Source: a virus
Taxonomy: Duplodnaviria; Caudoviricetes
Virus record (IMG/VR): IMGVR_UViG_3300011008_000002
Direction: 5' to 3' (one strand)
DNA: 64,000 bases
Each line of letters opens with the position of its first letter. The first letter of the stretch is position 1. The position numbers were made by a program, and so were the translations under genes. The notes beneath the pieces are model-generated. The model saw only the letters and a program-made list of their open reading frames with translations. It was not told the DNA's origin and made no database searches. Of this stretch, positions 856-28,135 are shown piece after piece.

Positions 856-3800
856 TCAATCGTTCAGCATACCACTAGCAAGTCTCTTTGCAACAGCATA
901 TCCAGAACGGTCTGATGTACCTGGGTTACTCGACGACCCATTGATAGTTGGAGTATTGAAAGTGTTAGAGGTATTTGTCTGATTGATAACACCACTTCCA
1001 AAGTCCTTTTTGTTAAGCGCATCAAGTTCTGTATTCGTCGTACCAGTGTTGCTGTCGATATTAGACAGATAACCGACCATCACTTTAAGTAACTGTGTTA
1101 TTTCAGAGGAATTCATCGAATTGATGGTGACGTCTCTAGTCATTATCTCCCTAGTTCTAGGATTCATATCTCTTGCATAATCCTGACGTACAGGAGATAC
1201 ATCAAATGCACCATACCCACCTCTTGCAGTTACATCTTCAAGTACCGGTTTTATCTTTGTAGGAGTAGATTTACGACGAGAACCAATGGATGTTTTAGAG
1301 CCTTTACCACCCTTTCCACCCATAGCGGAAATCATCACGTTGTTCTTCTTATCGACAACTTTCTTACCAACTGTACTGTTAGTTCCATTATCAACAAGTT
1401 GAGCCGTAGGTGCCTGAACATTCTTTAGTTCATCATATATACTCCTTGCATATCCACGCCTAGCGGCGTTGAAATCTGGCTTCTTATTATGATAATCAGC
1501 ACTAGAATTCTCATACCAATCTAATGCAACAGTTGCAGCATCTTCAGGAGTAGAAGCATTATTAAGCCTATCCATAAGTTGGAATTGTTTGTTCCTGTAA
1601 TTGAACTCACTAGGACCTTCAAATGCAAACTGAAGTTGCGTACTAAGTGTACCCCAGTTACTACCACCAAACTTCTTAAGCTGTTCACCACGAGGACCAG
1701 TCCATTGTGCCAATCCAAGACCCGGATATAAGTTTCCATCAGAACCTTTATATGCATCCTGATTTATCGTCAATCCGTTATTAGCATATCTCTGGAACAA
1801 TCGTTGTGTCCAGTTATTCATAGTAGCTCGGTCATTATACATCTTATCATAACCTGGGAAATCACCTAAATAATCACCTTCCATACGGTTCGGTGAATTC
1901 GATGATTCAGCTTGCCAAGCACCCATAAGACCCGCAGCCGCAATCGGTGAGAAATTCTTTGTAAATCTCAGGTAGTTCCAAATCTGTTCCCTGTTAGATT
2001 TACCGCTAAGGGGTATTTCTTTAGCAGTACCAACAGAACCACTATCAGAGCTATAAGAGTCACTTACAACATCAGCAGCAGTTGCTGCCGGAGATTTAAG
2101 TCCAAGTTTTTCATAAATCGGGTTCATGATGGCTCCAGCAAGACCAGACAACAGTCCTGCAATACCCGTTCCTGTACTTGTACTTGTTGAAGATGACGAG
2201 TATGATGAACCGCTATCATATGCAGCACTAGCAGTCGTACTTCCATCTACACCGAACTCACTAAGAGCATCTTCACCTGCTTTACCAAGACGCCATACTG
2301 TTTCATGTGCTCCACCAGCAGAAGTAGGTATAGCACTATTCGTTGATGCATCATCACCGCAGTTGTAAACGTAAGTCTTACCGTCTCTGATGTAAGCAAA
2401 TATCTCAGTATGACCACTTCTACCAAGGATATCACCTTCCCTAAGCTTATCATAACCCGGGAATGCAAATGGTGTAAATCCTGTAGCTTTCATCGTGGCA
2501 TCATTAGGATTCCTTACATTCGCTGAAGAGATATTGGTATTCTCCTTCATCACGCCGTAATACTTAAGACACGATTGTACATATCCAGAGCAGTCTGTAC
2601 GTGCGCTAATTGTCCTACCACCGACTGTAATCTTGATATAACGTGTCTGGCTATATCCAGGCTTCTGAGCTGCGATAGCTTCCTTAACAGCTCTGACGAT
2701 AGATAACCACTTCTCGTAATCTTCAGCTTCTTTCTGAGCTTCAGTCTTAACGCTATTCTTCGCTTCTGTAATTTTGTTGACTTTGGTTTTAGAAACACTT
2801 CCACCGTCATTAACAACAGTAGCTGTGGATACAGGTCCCTTACCACCGAATATTGCTCTAAAACCATGTCTCCTAGGAGAACCATAACCACCGTTACTAC
2901 CAAATGCCCACATACCAGTTGTGTCATTAAGGACATCATCCATACGGTATGCACCAGAGTATTCTCTACCCCTCGGATCATTGATAATAACATTATTATT
3001 TGCATCTATTCCAGTAGCAGTTACATAATGTCCCTCTGATGTATACGGACTATTTGTAGCTCCACCTCTTGCTCCCTGTAGTATTACAGAATTACCATTC
3101 TCCAAAGAACCTACAAGAGACTCTTGAGACGGATTTAATTGAGCATTGGGAATACCAAGAGCATTTCCTGCTGCACTGAAATATCCTGGAGTTGTTCCAG
3201 CAGATGTACTATATCCACCGGCTTCACTCATTTTAGCCATAGTAATGGGGTCATACGGTTTCCCAGTAGCTTGAGATGCAACCATAGCCATAGCAGTAGG
3301 TCCACATCCCGCGTCACCGATTGTAGCACCATCTCCACCAAAACCACCTGTAATTCTATAAGGTTTATTTTTGTATCTCGGGTCATTCTGAGAATAATAA
3401 GGCATACCATTAAGATATCCCTCTTCACCCTTACCACCGTTTACTGGACGTCCACCGTCATTACCACCACGACCAATGTTCATAATCGCAGTGCCTAGGC
3501 TATTAACGCCATTAGCAAACCACTTTCCAATACCAGATAAACCATCTTTGACCGTATCAACAGCATTAGAAGCAAATTCTCCAACATCATCAACAACGCC
3601 AGAAATAGCTTCGCCAATTCCATCAACGGTATCACCTAACCAACTAAACGCTCCTTTAACAGCTCTAACAATTCCAACATAGATACCCATGACTCTCTTA
3701 ATAATAGCAGAAAGTACACCGCCAACTACATCGGACTCATTCTCAGCCATTGATTCATTATCCCAAGTTTTCATATCTTTCTTAGGATCAGTATATTCGT

Positions 3801-6800
3801 TGAGCGTCTTTATGAAATCAAGTGATTTTCCACCATAATCAACAACGGCACCGATTGACTTCGTTACAAAACCACCTATTGCTTTACCAGTTGACACTAT
3901 TGCTCCAATAGGAGCTAACAAGAACTTCTCAGCACCATATATAGCATTGACAAATCCACCAATAGGATTACCTTCTTCATCAACTCCCTCATAATCATGA
4001 AGTTTTTCAACGTCGCCGTTTAATGCAAGAGTACCAAGTATAACTGATGTTTGACCAATCTGACTAACTGTATTGGCAACCGCAGCGACACCTTTCTTGA
4101 TACCATCTGCTACAAAACGTCCACCCTTCATCACCAATGCAGGTAGATAATAGAATATCTTAGCACCTGACAAAATACCAGTGAGGAATCCACCAATGGG
4201 ATTATCTTCGGATGCTTTGAACGTAAAGTCATTCAAAGAGTCTATATCACCATTGAACGCATAACTACTTAGCGTAGCAACATTGGTTCCGATATCAATG
4301 GCTGATTGTTTTACAGTATCAAATACCTTCAAGATACCACTACCAATTGCTCTAGCAACCTTCGATACAAGTGCAACCGGATACAAAGGTATTCTCTCTA
4401 TACCAACTATACCATTGATAAATCCACCAATGGGATTATCCTTAGACGTTGTTATTGTATAATCAGAAAGACCATCGAAGTCACCCCTTAGTGCAGTTCC
4501 GAGAAGATCTTTCTTATTATTGATATAATCACCAACTGCTGTCTTAATACCATCAAAGACTTTTGATATAGCACCACCTACAGCAGTTCCAACTTTCTTC
4601 AGTATTCCACCAACTAAAAGTTTTGGGAACATTATGAATTTGGATACATTGAGTACAGCTCCGACTGCACCGTGGAACATGTTGTCTTCTTTAAGAGGGT
4701 TGACATCAGCTTTGAAGTAATCCATGAAGCTGTTTTCTTTGTTATAGAAATTATCAGAGATTTTCTTGAATCCACTCATGATTCCCGCAGCGGCAACAAC
4801 ACCATCCTTGCCAACATTAGCAAGTGCAGAACCAACGTTTCCAAGTACCTCTTTCCCCTTATTGAATACTGAGGATGCACCGCTAGCAATCCCAGATCCG
4901 ACTCCTTTAACGCCGTTCCATACAGCAGTAGCTCCAGAAGCGATACCACTACCGATACCTTTAACTCCATTGACGATTCCGGAACCAATTCCTTTAACGC
5001 CATTAACAATACCTGAGCCAATACCTTTAGCACCGTTTACAACAGCAGCACCAACTCCCTTTATACCACCACCGACGCCTGTGATAAGGTCATAACCTCT
5101 TCTAATGAGTGATTTATTGGTTTTCGAATTATATTCTGAGCGAGTAGTTGACAAACTAGAAGCCTTAAATTCCTCATAGGACATTGCTTCCCGTCCACCT
5201 CCTTCTTCGCCTTTCTTATAGGCTTCATATTCCTCAGCAACATAATCCTCATAACCTTTGGTGAAATCATCCTGAGCGTTCTTAAGAGCTTCTTTTTCTT
5301 CTTCACTAGACATAAGGTCATATGCCCAAGAAGCAACACTCTTAAGGAAATTTATCCCAAGGATTTCATAAGCCAAACTATTGATAAAATCAATTACCGA
5401 GCCCGCAGTTGTATTAAGCAATCCCTTAAAGACAGCGGCGATAGCACGCATCTTCATATCAACATCACTGGGATTTACCTCAAATAAAGCACCTGCATTT
5501 GACAATCCATCAAGGACTCCATATACAATAAACCCTGCGGTTAATATTCCTGCTGTACCAACTTCGGCAGTAGCTTTCGCTGTAATCTTACCAAAGAATG
5601 TCTTAATCTTAGTTACAAACTTGCCGAGTATATTACCGTTTAATAATTTATCTGTAATTGGCTTTATGAAGCTTTTTAATTTAGCAATTGGTAACTTAGT
5701 ACCAATCTTCTCACCGGCAGCTACAAGCTTTTCCATAAGAAACGTTATAGCTTCACCCGCTTTTGTGATAAACTTCTGAACTATTTCTGTATTACCAACA
5801 GCTCTTACGGCATCATCGGCAACTCCCTTAACAGAAGAAGCTACTTTACCAACATTTCTAGCAGCATCATCAGCAAATGCACCTGCCTTTGAAGCAACCG
5901 CAGAACCAAACTGACCAACCTTAGAGGATGCAATCTTTGTTCCTACGTTCTTTGCAGTATTAGCAACACCCGCAGCAACATTGTCAGCCGCACCAACGAT
6001 ACCACTAGCAATTTTCTGTCTAAATGATGCTTGACTAGCCAGTTCTGTATATCCCGCATTCTTAAGAGCATTTAACTCTCTACCAGAAGCAAAGAACCTA
6101 CCAGTAGCAGCACCAATCTTCTTAGCGGTAGGAGCAACCTTGTCAAATACCTTAAGTGCAGGAATTACAACCTTATGACCAACCAAATTGGCTTTAGACT
6201 CTGACATAGTAGTCCAGTCGTTCCTATAACCCCATTCACCATTTCTAATGTCAACCCTAGTTCTAGTAGGAGTAAAGAACTCTTTAACAGGATTACTATC
6301 CCTCGGAGTTGTTACAAGATTTCCGTCTTCATCATATACAAGATTACCATTCTCATCAACCATCGGAGAAGTTGCGGTACCGTTTATAACATTTTTAGCA
6401 TCCTCAACTTGCTCTCCAGCATTATTAACAAGCCCAAGTAATCCACCAATTTCCCCAAATGCAGTCTTAATATCCTTAAGTATCTTTCCAATGAGATCCT
6501 GTATGTTGAAGTTCTTAATGAAATCAATAACTTTTGGTAGAAGTTTTATGACGAACGGTAACGCTAACATAATACCTGCTGTAATAAGACCCTTCTTACC
6601 AAACATACTGCTGAATATAGACTTATGTTCAACAGTTGCTTCTTTTGTCTTACCGAGCATATCAAGGAGCTTTGTTCTAAACTTACTCTCCTCTTTGGCT
6701 TTGTCAGACGCAGCAAATCTTTCAAACAAAGATGCACGAGCACCCTTATCGACCTGAGCCTGACGATTAGCAATCTTTTCGTTAAACTTCTCTCTTAATG

Positions 6801-9800
6801 CATCAAATTTAGAAGAAGCTGACGACTTAATTGCACTAAATTTATTTTTGATAGATGTAGCTACAGACGTTCTATTGTCGTCATCTGCAAGGCTTGCATC
6901 TGTTCCTGCGGCATCATCTCCTGCTCCTCCACCAGACATAGAGGTATCAACAGAAGTATCACCTACATTCATGTCAAGATGTTTTAAAGCTTCTTTATCT
7001 TCGTCACTAGACTTTCCAAATCCAATGATTTTCTTAAGAAAATTACCAAACGGAGAAGACTTACTCGTATCCGAATTTGCATCTCCACCTATAAAGATGG
7101 ATGCAAGATTACTTATTGCACGATTATTGAAACCAGATACAACTACGTATACAGGGTCAGATTTTTTCTTCTTAGGTCCAATACCAAATCCGCCCAAAAT
7201 AGGTTTCACAGGAAGTGGCTTAGGCTTAACATCATCTCCACCCATACCATCAGAATGAACTTGTTCAATGTTTCTTATACGTTTCACGAGGTCAAGTGTA
7301 CCGCTATCCACGATAACATGAACAGGACCTCTTCCACCAAGAGCATTCTTTCCAAGATTAAATAATCCTTTGGCGGCTTTGAACGGAGCAGTTGCTACAG
7401 CAGCAACACCTCTTCCAATTCCTTTACCTACGAATTTAAGCGCACCCCAAGCACCTCTTAAAATATCACCACCGATAACGCCTGCCGCAGACAAGAGACT
7501 GCCTAATCCAGACAACGCTCCACCGAGTAATTGTCCAAATCCTCTTGCTGCTCCGGCTATTGTATTACCAATAGCTGCTACACTATCGACAACAAGATAC
7601 CCGGCAGCTTTAATTCCACTACCAATTACAGAGACAGTTGCGCTTAATGCCTCTCCAAGAGCAGGAAGCATAGCTCTAACCGCTGAAAGACCGGTATGTA
7701 TAATGTCAAACGGAAGCTTTATAACTTCAAGAACGACATTACCTAATGCTTTACCAATTTCTGCAACTGTACTAACAACTAGACCAACTCCGTTTTTGAG
7801 AGCAGTTCCTGCACCCTTGATGAGATTTCCAATGTTAAGAAATCTATCTTTAATACCACCAAGAACTTCACCAATTTTGACAAATGGTGTAGTTATGATG
7901 TTTTTGATAGCCTCAACAGGACGATTGAACATTGTACGAAGTTTACCAAAGAACCCAACATAAGACTTATTATTATCACCCTTAATGTCATCATCCTTGA
8001 TATTATTGATTTTCAACATCATCCGATAAATCTTATTGACGTTGCTACCAACACCATTCAACTGTCCATATACAGAGTCAGCTATCTGATGTACATCTTT
8101 CTGTATATTAGTATAGAAATTACCCTTCTTAGGTTTCTTTGGTCTATTTGTCGTATCTGTAGTAGAACCAACTGTTTCAGGATTGTATCCTTCTTCAGTT
8201 CCTTCTGTGGAACTTTGTTCTGTTACGCTTCTCGTATCAACAGAACCAGTGTTCCGCTGATTTCTATTGCGATTTCTTCTGTTTCTCCTACGCCTTCTAT
8301 TCCCTGACGTTGAAGTATCGCTTGTCCTTTCTCCTCTGAAAGAACCAGTTAATGTACTTACCCTTTCTAGTATAGTAGAAAGAATATTATTCGTTTCTCT
8401 TGTCTCTGTGGTTTGTTCAGTTACCGCAGTTCTAACAGTCTCTGATGCATCAGTAACTGTTGCAACCGTTGGTGCAGCCTCGCTAGAAGTAGATGGAGTT
8501 ACAGTAGGATTGGTATTAACTTCAGTGGTCTTTTTTCTAGGACTAAGTAACCTAGCAAAGAAACCTCTATCATCCTTCGGTACGTCAGTACCATTTTCAA
8601 TAGCGGCTATCTTAGCTTCAGTCTCAGCACGAACTGCTGCTTTCCTAGCTTCTTCACTTTCAAACCATTTACCATGAGATGTATCATACCACGCACCGTT
8701 TTCTCCAAATTGGGCAGCGGTACGAGCTTTACCGTATTCAGTATCCTTCTTGAAGAAAGCCTTGAACTTCTCCCATCCTGATGCAAGAAATCCATGGTCT
8801 TCACGATACTGGTCTTCAAATGATTTCGCTCCACGTTTCTTTTGATTTTCATATGCACCTCTACCCATTGCACTGAAAATCTTAAATGGAGCTGATATAA
8901 TCCCACCTACAATATTACCCAATCCACTAAATATAGAGTGAAGTAAGTTCTTCATGGGTTTGATAAGATGCTCATCAACAACCTTTCCGATAGGATCAAC
9001 AACTTTGTCGAAGAATTTTTCTTTTATCTTATCAAAGAATTTATTGAAGCCTTCCTTTACTTTTCCAGCAACATACTTAGCTTCTTCCGTAATCGGCTTT
9101 AACGCAGTTTCAAACGGAATTACCATATTCTCTTTAACGAAACCGAGAATTTTTACTTGAGCAATTTTAACACTCTTTCCCAAAGGATCAAATATCTTAT
9201 CCTTCATATAAGTACTAAACTTGCTAAATACTCCGCCACTACGTTTTCCATTCTCGTCTTTTTCTCCAAAGAACCAAGTCTGGAATTTATCTGATGCTAA
9301 ACCAATTGATGCAGCTGACCCAAGTAATGCTCCGAGAATTGGACCACCCGGTAAGAAGAATGAACCTATAATTCCTACTCCGGCTCCAATACCACCATCA
9401 ACTGTTAATCCTTTGAGGTTTTTATCCTTACCAAAAACTTCTTTTAATTTCTTTGATAGACCACCAGTTGGATCATCTTTAGTACCACCCTCACCATACA
9501 AAAGGGTATTAAATGCTTCTGATTTAGTAGCTAGACTAATAGCTCCACCTATTAATGCACCACCAATAGGACCACCAGGTACAAAGAATGAAGGAAGTAA
9601 ACCAAACGAAGCGGCTAAACCAGTGCCAAGTCCGATACCTATACCAGTTTTATTATCCTTAAAGAAGTCTTGGAATTCTTTTGTTATAAGACCACCCTGA
9701 CGTTCACCAGTAGTTTCATCTTCAGGACCAAATAAGAAGTTCTGTAATCCTCTTGATTTGGAAACAATTCCAATACCTGCTCCAAGAAGAGCACCACCAA

Positions 9801-21852: not shown

Positions 21853-22557
21853 TTATCTAACATCAAAATCTGTACGTTCTGGGTAATAATCAAGGAATGG
21901 ATTACTAGCATAGGTGAACTTAATGACCATAGTCGCAATAAATTTTTCAATAAGGTCTAATTCATCTAGTACATTCCATATACGACAATTACCATTATCG
22001 TCAATTCTCCATAGTTCATTAAAGTCAAACTTCGCCTCCGTACCAAATACATTATTTGCATTCCATATATCGTATATTCTAGCTATAATTTGAATAACTA
22101 ATCTGATATTTGGATTATCAAGTCTCAAATATTTATAGAGATGAGACACTGACCATTTACCAGATATACGATATAATTCTGAAAATGAACGAGCTATTTC
22201 ATTAACATCATAGCTCATCTCACCAAATCGTTCATATATAGCGTCATTAATAACCAAATATCTATCATCACACACCCCATCGCTATACTTACTAAACAAC
22301 TGAAGTTGACTTGCCATAATAATACTTGGTTCTTCATATTGTATCATATGTCCCAATTTGTACTCTATAGCAAGCAAACATTCTTCAACATTTTCAAATT
22401 TTGAAGAGTTAAAATCATTTTTAACGCCAAAGCGGTTCATCATTTCTTCATACTTTTTGAACAAAAACGCATTGGTAGTATATCCAGAAAACAAATCCCG
22501 TAGATTTGCATTATCTGGTACAAAACCATAGCATTTAATGTTGTCCTTGGTTTTCAT
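21853..22557 (-). CDS. Hypothetical protein
   Basis: 234-aa ORF with RBS GGAGG. Confidence 0.75.
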   Translation of the reverse strand: MKTKDNIKCYGFVPDNANLRDLFSGYTTNAFLFKKYEEMMNRFGVKNDFNSSKFENVEECLLAIEYKLGHMIQYEEPSIIMASQLQLFSKYSDGVCDDRYLVINDAIYERFGEMSYDVNEIARSFSELYRISGKWSVSHLYKYLRLDNPNIRLVIQIIARIYDIWNANNVFGTEAKFDFNELWRIDDNGNCRIWNVLDELDLIEKFIATMVIKFTYASNPFLDYYPERTDFDVR

Positions 22558-22570
22558 CTGTAATAACCTC

Positions 22571-23230
22571 CTAGAAAATTTTGTTCAACCCGCAGAAACG
22601 TAAACGGTAAAGATAATTTATTTCTAACTCAATTGCATCAACGTAATACTTATGATTTATACTATCATAGAAATCATTCATAACGGTTGGTGCGTATTTT
22701 ATTATAGAAGTTAATATATCTACAATGAACTTATTATTTTTATTACTTGGATTGAGATAACGAGCCAATGTAAGTAAACCCGCTATAGATTGAAAAATAT
22801 CATATTCATTGTAACCATTGGTAGCATCTTCAGAGAATGTACTTTCTAGTATTTCGGTTGTGATATATGATCTGTCCATCAACTCAGTAGAATAAGAGAT
22901 AAGAGTCGTCAAAGTTGATATCTCATATAAACGATTTTGTCTCCTCGACATGTTATAGAGGGTCTTACTTACAGCTGATATAAACTCTGGGTCGACTTCT
23001 CCAAGAGGTTGATCATCATATGAGGTTTCTCTTTGAAATTCATATACCTCTATCTCTACATATTTTCCAATCAAATTCTCAATTTGGTCATGGTACATTC
23101 TCATGGTACAAATATTATTTGTACATCCACGAAATAAATCTTTATTTAGGAATACAAGTTCTGCTATAACGTTATCCTCAGGTAATTCCGTTTCCTTTTT
23201 CTCTACTATATCCAATACATAGAATGTCAT
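22571..23230 (-). CDS. Hypothetical protein
   Basis: 219-aa ORF with RBS GGAGGTG. Confidence 0.75.
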   Translation of the reverse strand: MTFYVLDIVEKKETELPEDNVIAELVFLNKDLFRGCTNNICTMRMYHDQIENLIGKYVEIEVYEFQRETSYDDQPLGEVDPEFISAVSKTLYNMSRRQNRLYEISTLTTLISYSTELMDRSYITTEILESTFSEDATNGYNEYDIFQSIAGLLTLARYLNPSNKNNKFIVDILTSIIKYAPTVMNDFYDSINHKYYVDAIELEINYLYRLRFCGLNKIF

Positions 23231-23248
23231 TCAAACTCACCTCCAATA

Positions 23249-23884
23249 TTACGCTTCTTTTATTTCAGCTAATATAAATTGTAATGTCTGATAGTAAATA
23301 GTATAATTCGGTTCAATAAACTTATTACCATAGATAGTACTATAGAAACTACAGATTTCTTCAATAATATCATCGTACTTCATTAGCATTTTACAAAATG
23401 GACTAAGTATATCTCTATATTCTGAATTCAAATACGCTACTGGTATTAGAATAAGTTGAGATACTGGTAATCCATCAAAAACGCCAATTTCTGATTCAGC
23501 TAGTTGCTCTAAAATCATATGATTGCACATTGACTCAAATTGACCATAGAACCAATTTGGTCCACAATCAATTTCCACCATATAATCGTATGATAAAAAG
23601 AAATCATCATCTAAATTATATCTATTATTTATATACTCTATCATAGCATACGAACCATATTCTATATCATCTGGATATTCATAATCTATGATTTCATAAC
23701 CTAACTTATTAAATGCATTATAAAACCATTTGTTGATATAAGCCATATAAATTTCCACTATGGTTTTATTCCTGTGAATTATATTAAAGAAAAAGAAGTA
23801 TTTAGAAATGTAGAAAGCCACATCTGTCTTGTCAGGTAATGAAGCAGCTCTTATAAATGGAGAAATTGTATATATTTTTTGCAT
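23249..23884 (-). CDS. Hypothetical protein (Tyr/Ile-rich)
   Basis: Start reassigned to MQKIYT (23884) after RBS AAGGGAGGTG. Confidence 0.7.
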   Translation of the reverse strand: MQKIYTISPFIRAASLPDKTDVAFYISKYFFFFNIIHRNKTIVEIYMAYINKWFYNAFNKLGYEIIDYEYPDDIEYGSYAMIEYINNRYNLDDDFFLSYDYMVEIDCGPNWFYGQFESMCNHMILEQLAESEIGVFDGLPVSQLILIPVAYLNSEYRDILSPFCKMLMKYDDIIEEICSFYSTIYGNKFIEPNYTIYYQTLQFILAEIKEA

Positions 23885-24123
23885 TTTATCACCTCCCTTT
23901 ATCTTACCATTTAATATATTTATATAAAAGTTAAGAAGACCATCAGGTTTCATCCATACCCAATGGTCTTCTTAACTTTATCTGTACTCATACATGAAAA
24001 AGAATTAGGAAACTGGCAACATTTTCCTACTGGAAGGTTTATTTTCCAATTTATTTCTATGTATATATGACAATAAAAAATTATAATAAAAATAATATTT
24101 AATAGAAGGGCATACATAAACTT

Positions 24124-25155
24124 AATGTAGAACGCGGGCATGTCACGTTGTTTAGTTTAAAGTAACAACCAATAATCGAACGTTTATCTCCTAGAGACAA
24201 GCGTATTGGTCACAAGAGATGCGAAACGAATTAGATGACAATATGTGTACGAGTCTGTTAATATGCAGGACGTGGAGTCGCCAGTAGCAATACTGGTAAC
24301 GAATGCTGTAAGAACTGCCACTTATTCATTAAAAATGCTCTCGCGACTATTGGTATGTATGCTGTAGTAATCTACATACTAGGTCATGATCGAAGAAAAC
24401 ATCCTACGAGAGCGGGGATTTAGTAGAGGTAGCACCCCTTATTTTGTAAGGCAGAACCACTATAAACATTATGAAATAGAGAATGAAAGAGACGTTTATA
24501 GGGGAGGCCGTGAGCTCGAATCACCTTATGGGATAAGAAGACCTATCGTATTAAATTGCTGGATGTAGGCCCTTTAGGAGCAGGTGCATTAAAAGACTGA
24601 GTGAGAAGGTCGAGTGGGTGGTCACTAGCTCGGTATGCAACCCCACAACTATGGACGCGAGGGTTGGGACCCGTACCAAACTTAATCGTGGGTTTCACAG
24701 GATGGAGCAGACGGTCGCCTAGGTAGCGACGAATTAAGTACAACCTCATACACCTAGATTCGGTTGGTTACAATAGAATCTCATCGTATTTATAGAATAA
24801 AAGAGCTATCGCAAGATAGATACTACAAGTCGGGGGCACTCGACGTCTCAATGTAAAACGGTTGCAAACGGTTTGCCATGTTTGCGATACGATGGAAAAT
24901 AAGAATTGTGGTAGGAGCATCATAGTCCATCCCTAATCATGATTATCTTATTATATCGCGAGATATGTGATATCACAGGTAACGTACAGTTCTTCTTGTG
25001 GTGCTGTACGTTATTCCTATATAAGACGATAATTCGATGTCGTCGAATGCTTTCGAGGTAAGTAGCATGATATCTTTTCGATGGATATTAAAAACTTTAG
25101 TATCTGATAATTTTGCCTCCAGATACGCCTTCGCGTGGGGGTATTTTGTAGTTCA
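24124..25155 (+). ncRNA. Candidate large (~1 kb) structured non-coding RNA
   Basis: No credible ORF, and more GC-rich than its flanks. Many stems, some with GNRA loops (CCAGTA-GCAA-TACTGG 24281-24296; CTATC-GCAA-GATAG 24806-24819; ATATC-GCGA-GATAT 24953-24966), plus long-range helices. TACA-N6-TA promoter motif at 24113-24124. Ends are approximate. Confidence 0.65.
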
Positions 25156-25189: not shown

Positions 25190-25900
25190 AACAAGCAGAA
25201 AGAGGTGAAAAATGACAGAAACATTGTAAATACGGGTAACCAGGCTTATTTTAGCTGGTTACCCGTATCGTTTCAGTCCTAAAAATCCCAAAATTTTCAC
25301 TTTTCTCGTAGCCGTAATTTACAGTAAAAGAAAGAAAGAACCAAAGAAAGAAAATCAACACAAAATAACCCCGTGGGTCCCCCCACCCCACGGGGTTATT
25401 TTGGTGTTGTTGATTTTTCATTTTATAAAAAACCAAAATTTTTTTCTTATCCGAAAAAGAAAATTTTTCGAAAAAAGAGAAAAAGAAAGAACCAAAGAAA
25501 AAGAGAAAAATCTAAACGAGAATTTTATATATTTCGTAGCCTTATTTAAGAAAAAATCCGCCTGTACAGGCGGATTTTTAAAACAAAGAAGTCGCTTACG
25601 CTCCTATTGTTTTCTACACGAGATATTCATAATATTGATTTTATCCAATTTTCGTAGATTAAAATCCGAAATTTGAATTTATAAGAGAAAATTTAATAAA
25701 ATATTAAAAATTGGATTTTAGGAAATTGGATTTATGAAAACCAAAATTTAAAATGCGAAATTTCCGAAAATCTTGTACGTACAAACAAAATCAAATTTTG
25801 AGCGAAAATAACGGATTACAATACGGAAAAATTCAATTTCCGAGAAAAATATTTGCGTACCTGTTATATATTATAATATATAACAATTTTACATGAAAGA
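25190..25900. other. Palindrome-rich, A-skewed non-coding region; candidate replication origin
   Basis: Inverted repeats at 25230-25268 and 25361-25403, perfect palindrome 25552-25579, direct repeats AAGAACCAAAGAAA x2 and AAATTGGATTT x2, long A-tracts. Lies between divergent gene blocks. Confidence 0.4.
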
Positions 25901-25918: not shown

Positions 25919-26377
25919 ATGAAAACACGAGAAGAAATTGTATACATTGCATACAGAAATAAACAAGTATTTGTATACTCATATGATATAAATGCGTTCT
26001 TTACTTACTTGAAATCTTTATATGAGAGAAATTCCAATATTTACTTGGAACTAGAAAAGAAAACTATTGAAAAATGCGAGTTTTCATATCAGTCCTTGTA
26101 TCCAGAGGAGGAGTTGGTAGAATTTGTTGAAAATGAATATATGCCCATCTGGGAATACCGTATTTGGCGGCGTTACTGGGACAGTATCAGACTAAAAACT
26201 TTAGACTTAACCTCTGAAGAAAACAAAAATAATCCTGCTTTGAAAAATGTCGATAATTTTCTCTATTACGTTGGATATGATAAAGTAAAAGAGAAAATCA
26301 AATTGGATAATATTGTTTTCGAACCAGAAAGTTATTTAATGGATTTGGAATTCAGCCAAATAATCGAGGACAAATAA
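25919..26377 (+). CDS. Hypothetical protein
   Basis: 152-aa ORF with RBS GGGGGTG and TATATTATA upstream. Confidence 0.7.
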   Translation: MKTREEIVYIAYRNKQVFVYSYDINAFFTYLKSLYERNSNIYLELEKKTIEKCEFSYQSLYPEEELVEFVENEYMPIWEYRIWRRYWDSIRLKTLDLTSEENKNNPALKNVDNFLYYVGYDKVKEKIKLDNIVFEPESYLMDLEFSQIIEDK

Positions 26378-26407
26378 TTAAAATCCAATGAGAAAGGAGT
26401 GAAAATA

Positions 26408-28135
26408 ATGGTAGGATTTGATTTATCAGAAGTTCTTGTTAAATCAGGATTATCTTCTTTAAGTCATAAAATACAAGAACTTCAATACGAATTATCAATT
26501 CAAACTGTAGGTTACTTAGGAAACATTCAAAATATGAAAAGCGGAACTAGACCTGAGAAAGGACAATACATTACAAGTTTACCTGGTGTAAATGATGTAT
26601 GCACTTTCATGAATGAAGCAATCATGAGAGAGAATAATGATGCTTCGATGTATTTGTCAAAAATCTATTCCGACCATGCTTTTCAAATTTTAGTCGCATC
26701 GGGATATATCCCGATTGCTTGGCTTGAAAAGACCTATCCAGAAGACGCTCCAGTAAGGTTTAATACAATCAAAAACCTCTGGGATGCTATGCTTACTGAT
26801 TATGCAGGTATCAGTATAAGGAGAGACTTCATTTACACCCGATTTAGAACAATCGGTATGCTTACTTGTCGTACAGAAGGCTATGAAAAAGAAAAGCTTC
26901 TCTATTTCCTGATACCTAATAATCAGCCTGACTTGGAATTCTTGAAAAGTTGGATTTCTCAGAATTCCATCCATGAAGTTTTGGTTTTAACCGAAGCTGA
27001 ATATGCTGCTAAGGTAGTTGACCAAAACTATGATTTTTTGTTCAAATTTGATAAGATTGTAGACCCTTACAAGGGTATTACATTCCGAATTTCTACTGAG
27101 ATTAAAGCGACTATTCCAACATATCTTGCTGAAATTGGATGTGATACGATGTGCTGTTTCCCTGAAAAGGAATCTTCGGATAAATACATGGTTGATAGTA
27201 ATCGTCTCATTATCAAGGAATTCCAGAAAGGTGATTCCATTCAATTTGCGGTTAGTGCACCTGCTAACTATACTATTGACTACATATGCTTGAATGGAAT
27301 TCCTCATTTCTTTGGTACTGCTGATCTTGATGCAGCAGGTATTATGATTACGAAATCCGATAACGGCATTATCACAAACTACAATAAATTCATCGTCACG
27401 GTTTCTGGTATTAGAGAGTCTACGAAGATATATGTAGATGCTTGTGAAGATTTGACTGGAAAGACTTCTGTAAGGAATATGATTTCTAAAGATAAGTCCA
27501 GCGTTGAATTTGATGGTGATATTACGAAGGTAAGAATTCAATTCAATCATCCGTTCATATTCTTCAATAAAGAGAAAGTGAAGATATATGCAAGAAAGGA
27601 TGAAACTGCATTTGAAGAATTGGTTGGTGCAGTTGAAGTTCTTGTTGATGGATATCATATGGTTGAGAAGAGGGCGGTATTTGGGAATGTATATTTCAAT
27701 ATGTCTTCTGATGCTACATATAACAACCGCGTAACTCCGGAACGTCCTATGGATGGTCCTGATAATCCTGATCCGATGAAGAGGAGAGATAACCCGTATG
27801 TAGTTCATTATCTCCCGAGATATATGTCTCCATTTGCTCAGAATGTTGCTACTGAGGTTGGTCCTGAATCTAGGGCTATTCTGTTCAATGTATCTGAATC
27901 TGGAGCCATTGTTTTGGTATTTGAAGGATACACTGATTACAAGTATTTCAGAGTTACGTTTGAAGATAGGGCAATGGTAGCCGTGTACAGAATTACTGGT
28001 AGTAGTTCAAATGACCTTGATGTTATTCCTGTTATTGAGGATTATGTATTCGAGAGACCGATTACTGAGGAAGATAACGGTATAGATACAACCGATGACC
28101 TTGATGATGGTGAAAATATTACAGATGATTTCTAA
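26408..28135 (+). CDS. Hypothetical protein (possibly virion-associated, beta-rich C-half)
   Basis: ~575-aa ORF. RBS AAGGAGTG precedes ATG 26408. A hairpin follows at ~28146-28183. Confidence 0.75.
   Translation: MVGFDLSEVLVKSGLSSLSHKIQELQYELSIQTVGYLGNIQNMKSGTRPEKGQYITSLPGVNDVCTFMNEAIMRENNDASMYLSKIYSDHAFQILVASGYIPIAWLEKTYPEDAPVRFNTIKNLWDAMLTDYAGISIRRDFIYTRFRTIGMLTCRTEGYEKEKLLYFLIPNNQPDLEFLKSWISQNSIHEVLVLTEAEYAAKVVDQNYDFLFKFDKIVDPYKGITFRISTEIKATIPTYLAEIGCDTMCCFPEKESSDKYMVDSNRLIIKEFQKGDSIQFAVSAPANYTIDYICLNGIPHFFGTADLDAAGIMITKSDNGIITNYNKFIVTVSGIRESTKIYVDACEDLTGKTSVRNMISKDKSSVEFDGDITKVRIQFNHPFIFFNKEKVKIYARKDETAFEELVGAVEVLVDGYHMVEKRAVFGNVYFNMSSDATYNNRVTPERPMDGPDNPDPMKRRDNPYVVHYLPRYMSPFAQNVATEVGPESRAILFNVSESGAIVLVFEGYTDYKYFRVTFEDRAMVAVYRITGSSSNDLDVIPVIEDYVFERPITEEDNGIDTTDDLDDGENITDDF

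Follow-up and report, generated by a model that had tools for sequence, protein, structure and literature searches.

What occupies the largest stretch free of open reading frames (ORFs) in the genome of a jumbo phage? The question arises in a 64,000-nt window, the whole stretch of DNA analyzed here, which is the minus strand of positions 36958-100957 of the 229-kb (229,126 bp) IMG/VR record IMGVR_UViG_3300011008_000002, estimated to be 97% complete. Between the end of a minus-strand gene at 23953 and the start of a plus-strand gene at 25919 no ORF exceeds 91 aa, and this gap is the largest ORF-free stretch in the whole genome. The original prediction, made from the letters of the sequence, had placed a candidate for a giant, structured RNA without coding function, possibly the first of its class, at 24113-25155. 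We propose that positions 24124-25017 of the window, on the plus strand, constitute a free-standing gene of about 894 nt for a structured non-coding RNA, its 5’ end placed by a promoter motif and its 3’ end by the limit of conservation. Very likely it stands for a real and hitherto undescribed family of large structured RNAs that encode no protein, as homologs conserve it, compensatory changes among them are abundant, and no family in Rfam 15 matches it. The combined reading, in which this new RNA would be transcribed late in infection and would self-associate into a symmetric RNA assembly, has in our estimate a probability of roughly 0.6.

The element and its homologs

The element is present in a single copy in the genome. 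In agreement with the original description, neither strand of 24113-25155 contains an ORF longer than 68 aa, and the GC fraction at 24350-24950 is 0.44-0.48 versus 0.26-0.30 in the flanks, with a plus strand that is rich in purines (G and A).

Homologous copies define a set of nine distinct uncultured jumbo phages, including that of the window, with pairwise nucleotide identities of 48-87%. Two IMG/VR relatives, with lengths of 244 kb and 220 kb, came to light by way of the downstream 578-aa protein and of short motifs that are conserved; in both, the element is 73-77% identical and lies in the same place. Six further element-bearing loci were reached through RNA polymerase (RNAP) homologs in ENA and Logan assemblies; two additional RNAP-homolog contigs were left out, one because it came without DNA and one because it had too little flank. 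Scans of IMG/VR with three single-block patterns of 15-21 bases and one three-block gapped pattern returned two distinct relatives, each as two contigs, and otherwise chance matches. All nine copies sit in a divergent gap adjoining a gene for an RNAP beta-like protein, and synteny with this gene and with virion genes is kept at all loci.

How far does the conserved unit extend? In the window and in the homologs L002 and L015, for which the flanks were aligned, conservation runs from a [T/A]ACA motif to just past a terminal hairpin, whereas the intergenic surroundings cannot be aligned; the other homologs match an nhmmer profile over the same span. Profile and alignment place the limits of conservation at 24113-25021 and the end of the element at ~25017. 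Of the extent first proposed, the 5’ edge is retained exactly, at 24113, and the 3’ limit has to be moved inward from 25155, with 25018-25155 not conserved.

Judged from the alignment, coding of a protein by the element is excluded. No open frame is found at a shared position across the homologs, the longest stop-free run being 93 codons. Variable columns show no 3-nt periodicity (0.64/0.58/0.61 by phase), and 225 of the 264 gap runs have lengths that are not divisible by three, with 39 divisible.

Further searches marked the bounds of the family. Blastn of the element against GenBank phages gave no match, and neither did a family-wide gapped pattern against 185,579 GTDB species genomes, so that no bacterial or prophage copy was found there at that stringency. 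A 19-base loop motif had two chance matches only in metagenomes, an alignment of the head-tail-joining protein retrieved only an already known relative, the upstream 234-aa protein found only itself, and the nine-sequence nhmmer profile matched neither Listeria phage LPJP1 nor the L163 locus of a sister clade. As known at present, the family belongs to a single clade of uncultured gut jumbo phages with genomes of 220-245 kb. The window phage encodes an RNAP beta-like protein of 1568 aa (Pfam Rpb2_6) whose nearest cultured relatives, at ~30% identity, are found in jumbo phages of Listeria, Staphylococcus, and Bacillus, including PBS1, and LPJP1 is the closest cultured relative by this protein. 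The multisubunit polymerase of the clade is distantly related to those of Listeria LPJP1, Staphylococcus jumbo phages, and Bacillus PBS1.

Two loci outside the family also have a divergent gap next to the polymerase gene. In the sister clade (RNAP 46% identical), this gap contains an ORF-free stretch of ~420 nt with a GC fraction of 0.41-0.44, L163:3262-3690 on the minus strand, which has AACA-N6-TA before it and a strong terminator behind it. This single sequence has no similarity to the 0.9-kb RNA and no Rfam match, and the z-score of its minimum free energy (MFE) is -1.15. Possibly another RNA, or a reduced one, occupies the equivalent position here. In LPJP1 (L166; MZ422438.1 75617-76671), an unannotated divergent gap of ~1 kb lies directly upstream of the RNAP beta-like gene. 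Most of this gap is very rich in AT (GC 0.10-0.33), the GC fraction rising modestly at 7000-7200 of the locus, and the RNA profile finds no match in it.

Covariation and fold of the RNA

RNAalifold applied to the nine-sequence alignment gives 216 pairs, in which 90.3% of the cells are canonical. Compensatory double changes occur in 108 of these pairs, compared to 52.7±4.7 when the letters of the 3’ partners were redealt (shuffle control) and 28-39 when the 3’ partners were moved by 1-3 columns, a slid control that keeps the phylogeny. The covariation score follows the same order, at 0.447 for the alignment, 0.243±0.009 for the shuffles, and 0.10-0.14 for the slid controls. About 20 helices contain two to ten covarying pairs each. 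On the plus strand, G-U and A-C cells stand at 300:54, versus 143:103 with the reverse complement folded, and the consensus energy is -270.6 kcal/mol on the plus strand versus -219.5 kcal/mol on the minus strand. The G-U asymmetry fixes the plus strand as the RNA strand, which is the strand on which the helices had originally been read.

The covariation shows a fold of about 25 helices that is tied together by two pseudoknots (PK1 and PK2). Its parts, from 5’ to 3’, are as follows.

24113-24124, plus strand: promoter-like motif TACA-N6-TA, with the predicted start at A24124
24125-24270, plus strand: variable 5’ domain, a long irregular arm, poorly aligned in L160 (much of the domain, gapped) and L162 (its start)
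24134-24148/24243-24258, plus strand: closing helices of the 5’ domain, 8 pairs with double changes
24211-24217, plus strand: 5’ strand of PK2, CACAAGA, pairing with the loop of the 3’-terminal hairpin
24272-24321, plus strand: core block, the most conserved part, with helix GUGGAGUC/GAACUGCCAC around the hairpin 24280-24297; 3 and 2 pairs with double changes
24336-24343/24407-24414, plus strand: helix UGCUCUCG/CGAGAGCG, 5/8 pairs covarying
24400-24404/24561-24565, plus strand: PK1, CAUCC/GGAUG, a non-nested covarying stack with all cells canonical
24415-24560, plus strand: two-segment long arm ending in a three-way junction, double changes in 10/17, 8/14, and 5/9 pairs
24568-24677, plus strand: domain with arm 24578-24631 and hairpin 24638-24666, 8/12 and 5/7 pairs covarying
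24687-24781, plus strand: hairpins 24692-24708, 24714-24730 (loop YUAGGNW), and 24756-24781, with conserved single strands between them
24782-24894, plus strand: multi-helix domain closed by CAUCGUAUU/GAUACGAUG, with three hairpins inside; 8/9 closing pairs and 5/6 and 6/8 inner pairs covarying
24853-24876, plus strand: hairpin whose palindromic loop, G-UUGCAA-A at 24861-24868, may form symmetric kissing contacts between molecules; the stem covaries
24898-24952, plus strand: long hairpin with a conserved 16-nt loop (24916-24931) that contains CAUAGU (24921-24926); 8/17 stem pairs covarying
24979-25014, plus strand: 3’-terminal hairpin with the conserved loop UCUUGUG (24994-25000); 8/15 stem pairs covarying, and conservation stops just after it

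In the core block, the junction GGUAACG...CUGUAAGA is near-invariant. Across the wider core, 191 of 750 columns are invariant. Within the segment 24336-24414 lie a hairpin (24345-24385) and a strand rich in A, as well as the 5’ strand of PK1, and the long arm that follows contains a conserved A-rich loop of 28 nt (24467-24494). In the 24687-24781 region, five of the six pairs in the stem 24692-24708 covary; the other two hairpins are near-invariant and hence carry no covariation information either way.

Most of the helices that had been drawn from the single sequence acquire support from the homologs. Compensatory changes are found in the CCAGUA/UACUGG hairpin (24280-24297), in the CUAUAAAC/GUUUAUAG helix (24457-24504), and in the hairpin at the position of CUAUC-GCAA-GAUAG, while the CAUCGUAU/AUACGAUG helix (24782-24894) covaries in eight of nine pairs and the UAACGUACAG/CUGUACGUUA helix (24979-25014) in eight of fifteen. 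By contrast, the long-range helix ACUUAAUCGU/ACGAAUUAAGU receives little support in the register counted, which may be off by one owing to an extra base in the 3’ strand, and the ATAUC-GCGA-GAUAU hairpin is not conserved. The helices GUUGUU/AACAAC and CCAAUA/UAUUGG belong to the poorly aligning 5’ domain and stay candidates.

The two pseudoknots were found by searching for non-nested covarying stacks. PK1 displays three independent compensatory changes: CACCC/GGGUG in L015, UAUCC/GGAUA in L164, and AAUCC/GGAUU in L162. In PK2, CACAAGA (24211-24217) in the 5’ domain pairs with UCUUGUG (24994-25000) in the terminal loop; CACAAG is the same in seven of the nine sequences, and L002 contains the compensatory pair CACGAGA/UCUCGUG. 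Because PK2 joins both ends of the molecule, we argue that the terminal hairpin is part of the functional RNA rather than a terminator alone. In addition, the invariant loop hexamer ACUAUG (24648-24653) of hairpin 24638-24666 is complementary to CAUAGU (24921-24926), with 98% of the cells canonical across the homologs.

Transcription unit and proposed self-association

How would such an RNA be made? In the jumbo phage AR9, late promoters of the non-virion polymerase have the consensus AACA-N6-TA/G, whose last base is the start site (PMC5312081), which by analogy gives A24124 as the predicted start of transcription. The TACA-N6-TA motif noted earlier is present at 24113-24124, and in eight of the nine homologs the 5’ edge reads [T/A]ACA-N6-TAATG (TACA in seven, AACA in one). 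The exact 15-mer pattern WACA-N6-TAATG is not over-represented in the window (4 found vs 2.5 expected), and we therefore tested shorter forms genome-wide. Within the 120 nt preceding each of 179 inferred genes, the density of [AT]ACA-N6-TAA is 8.4 times that of the genome as a whole, and in the same upstream windows [AT]ACA-N6-TA occurs 39 times in sense and 16 times in antisense orientation. The 5’-edge motif thus matches the AR9-type promoter of a non-virion, late-acting RNAP, and its use by the phage polymerase is predicted; the claim that the RNA has a phage-type promoter of its own gains accordingly. About 40 nt upstream of TACA, at 24060-24075, lies a conserved TGTATATAT-like box with equivalents in L002, L015, L159, and L160. 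It is not a general upstream motif of the genome, where the 27 TGTATATA sites are mostly inside genes; it may serve the RNA gene specifically, as an operator or as a second promoter.

Beyond the terminal hairpin, an unconserved spacer of ~0.9 kb (0.46-1.5 kb in relatives) separates the RNA from the next gene at 25919. The surroundings of the RNA comprise the following features.

21853-23953, minus strand: ORFs of 234, 219, and 234 aa
25230-25268, 25361-25403, and 25552-25579, no strand assigned: strong or perfect palindromes in the spacer, outside the RNA
25919-28135, plus strand: ORFs of 152 and 578 aa

The palindromes at 25361-25403 and 25552-25579, each bordered left and right by T/A runs, resemble bidirectional terminators. 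The neighbors of the RNA are variable: L160 has another gene in the downstream place, and L161 has gained additional genes upstream. A terminator-bearing, unconserved spacer together with these changes of neighbors argues that the RNA is an autonomous unit and not a leader.

In L160 (231-kb scaffold; 252-1586, 3074-3951), a gene of the RRXRR family (HNH-like) replaces the usual downstream pair of 150 aa and 600 aa, and the 5’ arm of its RNA is unalignable with the others and gapped in the nine-sequence alignment; the gene swap and the aberrant arm suggest recombination or mobile-element activity at the locus. Direct repeats of purine tracts (AAAGAAAGAACCAAAGAAAGAAAA-like) occur in the spacer (25190-25900), one set at 25323-25354 and one at 25470-25509. 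In three relatives, L145 (227-kb scaffold), L146, and L162, the contig ends in or next to the equivalent spacer, which may reflect repeats that break assembly or a physical end of the genome.

The hairpin at 24853-24876 offers a lead to what the RNA may do. Its stem differs in every homolog, whereas its loop reads UUGCAA in eight of them and CUAUAG in L162, the most divergent sequence; both hexamers are self-complementary, and the conserved loop flanks (G- and -A) identify the L162 hairpin as homologous to the others. It is the only consensus hairpin loop that is palindromic in all nine sequences, and elsewhere in the RNA the hexamer has no second copy at a conserved position that could act as an intramolecular partner. 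Neighboring nucleotides within one loop are unable to pair with each other, and the palindrome is therefore most simply read as a site where two RNA copies make a symmetric contact. For OLE and GOLLD, Kretsch et al. relied on a change from one palindrome to another in support of symmetric kissing loops between molecules (PMC12286853), and loop 24861-24868 shows such a covarying, self-complementary loop by way of one switching sequence. The pattern is suggestive of self-pairing of RNA copies through the palindromic loop.

From the palindromic loop, the type of promoter, and the autonomy of the unit, we infer the following course of events. The RNA would be transcribed from the AR9-type promoter by the non-virion polymerase, with late timing deduced from the motif, and would end at or just after the conserved terminal hairpin. 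It would then fold into its ~25 helices and two pseudoknots, one of which joins the 5’ domain to the 3’-terminal loop, and the invariant six-base loop-loop complementarity is a candidate for a further contact. The folded RNA would self-associate through the palindromic loop into a symmetric dimer or a higher-order RNA assembly, in resemblance to the ornate phage RNAs GOLLD and ROOL. During late infection, such an assembly may serve as a scaffold or a container made of RNA, and not as a message or a cis-regulator. As the loop has stayed self-complementary despite a change in sequence, we take self-association to be the most likely mode of action. A bolder version, in which the RNA founds a new kind of self-assembling RNA-only particle (a dimer or a cage-like multimer) made late by jumbo phages with their own RNAP, or else a new class of large ribozyme, is less probable and we put it forward tentatively.

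Several observations weigh against this reading. The MFE of 24124-25017 folded as a single sequence does not differ significantly from that of dinucleotide shuffles (z = -1.44, with 2/20 shuffles as good), and the opposite strand is more extreme than the plus strand (z = -2.33). Folding energy alone thus establishes nothing, and the case for more structure than expected by chance rests on covariation. The original prediction had staked itself on folding better than shuffled controls, and by this measure it nearly fails; the covariation outweighs the energy. The nine sequences come from one phage clade, so that some of the covariation counts share ancestry. A random hexamer is self-complementary with a chance of ~1/64 and the palindrome switches in a single sequence, L162, for which reasons we treat the palindrome as suggestive evidence. 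The two complementary hexamers at 24648-24653 and 24921-24926 are near-invariant, and covariation neither supports nor refutes their contact. The 3’ end and the promoter class are both deduced from sequence alone. Finally, among public sequencing runs the sequence is listed for one gut-metagenome DNA run, from one study, and for no RNA run.

Known RNA families and rival explanations

Does the RNA belong to a class that is already described? Structured bacterial and phage RNAs that exceed ~500 nt and adopt intricate tertiary folds are few, namely the ribosomal RNAs, RNase P RNA, group I and II introns, OLE, GOLLD, ROOL, HEARO, and raiA. Rfam 15 comprises 4227 families, including GOLLD, ROOL, OLE, raiA, HEARO, RNase P, transfer-messenger RNA (tmRNA), 6S, packaging RNA (pRNA), and group I and II introns, and none of them matches anywhere in the 64-kb window at gathering thresholds. 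At E<=10, where nothing relevant emerges either, the only match inside 24113-25017 is RAGATH-6, with 24.5 bits against a gathering score of 170 bits. In four further homologs and L163, scanned at the same level, no match falls inside the element and none recurs at equivalent positions. The low-scoring matches are chance ones, to models of terminator hairpins and miRNA-like stems. RNase P RNA and tmRNA were rejected as candidates, as neither has an Rfam match and ARAGORN finds no transfer RNA (tRNA) or tmRNA gene in the window or in the whole 229-kb genome. Devoid of tRNA genes, the phage also does not offer the tRNA surroundings in which GOLLD and ROOL are typically found, or an obvious RNase P-like role.

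The closest likeness is to GOLLD. Both RNAs are encoded by phages or prophages, span ~0.8 kb or more without coding for protein, contain many covarying helices and pseudoknots, and combine a less conserved 5’ region with a conserved 3’ region. GOLLD has symmetric self-interacting kissing loops with covarying palindromes (PMC12286853), a likeness that loop 24861-24868 may extend to the new RNA, where oligomerization is predicted from this one loop. The two differ in that the GOLLD model matches none of the homologs scanned, that GOLLD often adjoins tRNA islands whereas this phage is devoid of tRNA genes, and that the new RNA adjoins a phage RNAP gene and has an AR9-type promoter motif. ROOL, too, is a large ornate phage or prophage RNA from gut or rumen with multiple pseudoknots and no known protein partner. 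Its Rfam model is likewise unmatched and its genomic context is different, and on these grounds, with no comparison to its published secondary structure, we set it apart. ROOL assembles through kissing loops (PMC12286853).

A search of the literature found no description of such an RNA in jumbo phages. The words “noncoding” and “non-coding” are absent from the paper on transcription profiling of AR9 (PMC5312081). Motifs in the structured-RNA catalogue of IMG/VR measure 29-151 nt, so that at most fragments of the RNA could be listed there. The class of RNA is very likely new, in that no described family matches it and its fold appears unrelated to those of the giant ornate phage RNAs, itself a loose category.

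If the RNA is real and new, might it work with proteins rather than with itself? It could be a subunit or scaffold of a ribonucleoprotein built with phage proteins, for instance a packaging-motor RNA or a decoy or regulator of the phage RNAP, and its conserved loops would then be contacts to partners. We consider this unlikely. The conserved synteny with the RNAP beta-like and virion genes at all loci, the many invariant single-stranded loops, and a late-type promoter suited to a role in morphogenesis all speak for it, as do the contig breaks of relatives in the adjacent spacer, a hint of a nearby genome end. Yet the neighboring proteins have no recognizable RNA-binding or other domain: the five ORFs flanking the RNA (21853-23953 and 25919-28135) match no Pfam or PHROG family and gave nothing usable from the protein atlas, two of them having low-confidence atlas models only, while farther out the RNAP beta-like protein and a virion structural protein did match such families. 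The upstream 234-aa and 219-aa ORFs show no detectable paralogy to each other. Moreover, the immediate neighbors are not fixed, given the different downstream gene in L160 and the upstream insertions in L161, and the palindromic loop is more simply explained as a self-contact. One precedent is the pRNA of phi29, a phage-encoded structured RNA of ~170 nt that forms a homo-oligomer through loop-loop pairing. The new RNA, at ~894 nt, is five times that size and has no Rfam pRNA match, and a contact with the packaging motor is unsupported. The phi29 pRNA has been cited as a building block of nanocages (PMC12286853).

A ribozyme of a new class, acting on itself or in trans with the pseudoknotted core as its active site, is somewhat more doubtful still. 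Size, pseudoknots, and blocks of invariant unpaired nucleotides within covarying helices are typical of large ribozymes, and the proportion of invariant core columns given above fits with them. However, no substrate is marked, the element interrupts no gene and thus has nothing to splice, no tRNA genes are present for an RNase P-like role, and no Rfam ribozyme family matches.

A long cis-acting leader for the genes from 25919 onward, or an element that functions at the level of DNA, such as a replication origin, is improbable. The RNA does have the same orientation as the downstream genes, and the spacer at 25190-25900 is rich in palindromes and purine-tract repeats. A leader would have to span 0.46-1.5 kb of unconserved sequence with terminator-like hairpins and to serve a different next gene in L160, and both the asymmetry between G-U and A-C cells and the strand-specific consensus energy favor RNA pairing over DNA cruciforms.

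Least probable of all is derivation from a self-splicing intron, be it in degenerate or in free-standing form. The strands of PK1 do follow the order of group I P3-P7 (5’ strand of the helix, hairpin, 5’ strand of the pseudoknot, 3’ strand of the helix, arm, 3’ strand of the pseudoknot), AUAGUCC in the loop 24916-24931 resembles the group I S element, and relatives in the phage group such as PBS1, itself a relative of AR9, have introns in their RNAP genes according to annotation; but the P4-P6 position holds one hairpin only, the arm directly abuts the 3’ strand of the helix and the 3’ strand of PK1 and so leaves no unpaired J3/8 or J8/7 nucleotides, the group I and II covariance models are unmatched even at E<=10 in the window element and four homologs, the unconserved flanks contain no exons and no ORF that could be joined on either side, a promoter motif occupies the conserved 5’ edge, and, with regard to group II (ORF-less forms included), the RNA starts with AAUGUAGAA and not GUGYG and shows no domain V-like hairpin. 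We reject membership in group I, with which the topology of PK1 alone is common ground, and give remote descent a small probability.

This leaves self-association of a new, late-transcribed structured RNA as the reading we prefer. Each new class of large RNA has opened new biology or new structural principles. Here, the comparative support is unusually dense for nine sequences and includes two covariation-backed pseudoknots, which, together with a prediction of self-association that is cheap to test, makes the RNA a good candidate for cryo-electron microscopy. Jumbo phages related to AR9 would thereby have a transcription unit, probably a late one, reserved for a non-coding RNA. Because it is found outside the tRNA context of GOLLD and ROOL, this RNA could help to separate those features of giant phage RNAs that are related to function. 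If the prediction of an RNA-only particle is true, the phenomenon known from GOLLD and ROOL would come to include a fold unrelated to theirs and a lineage of phages that has no tRNA islands.

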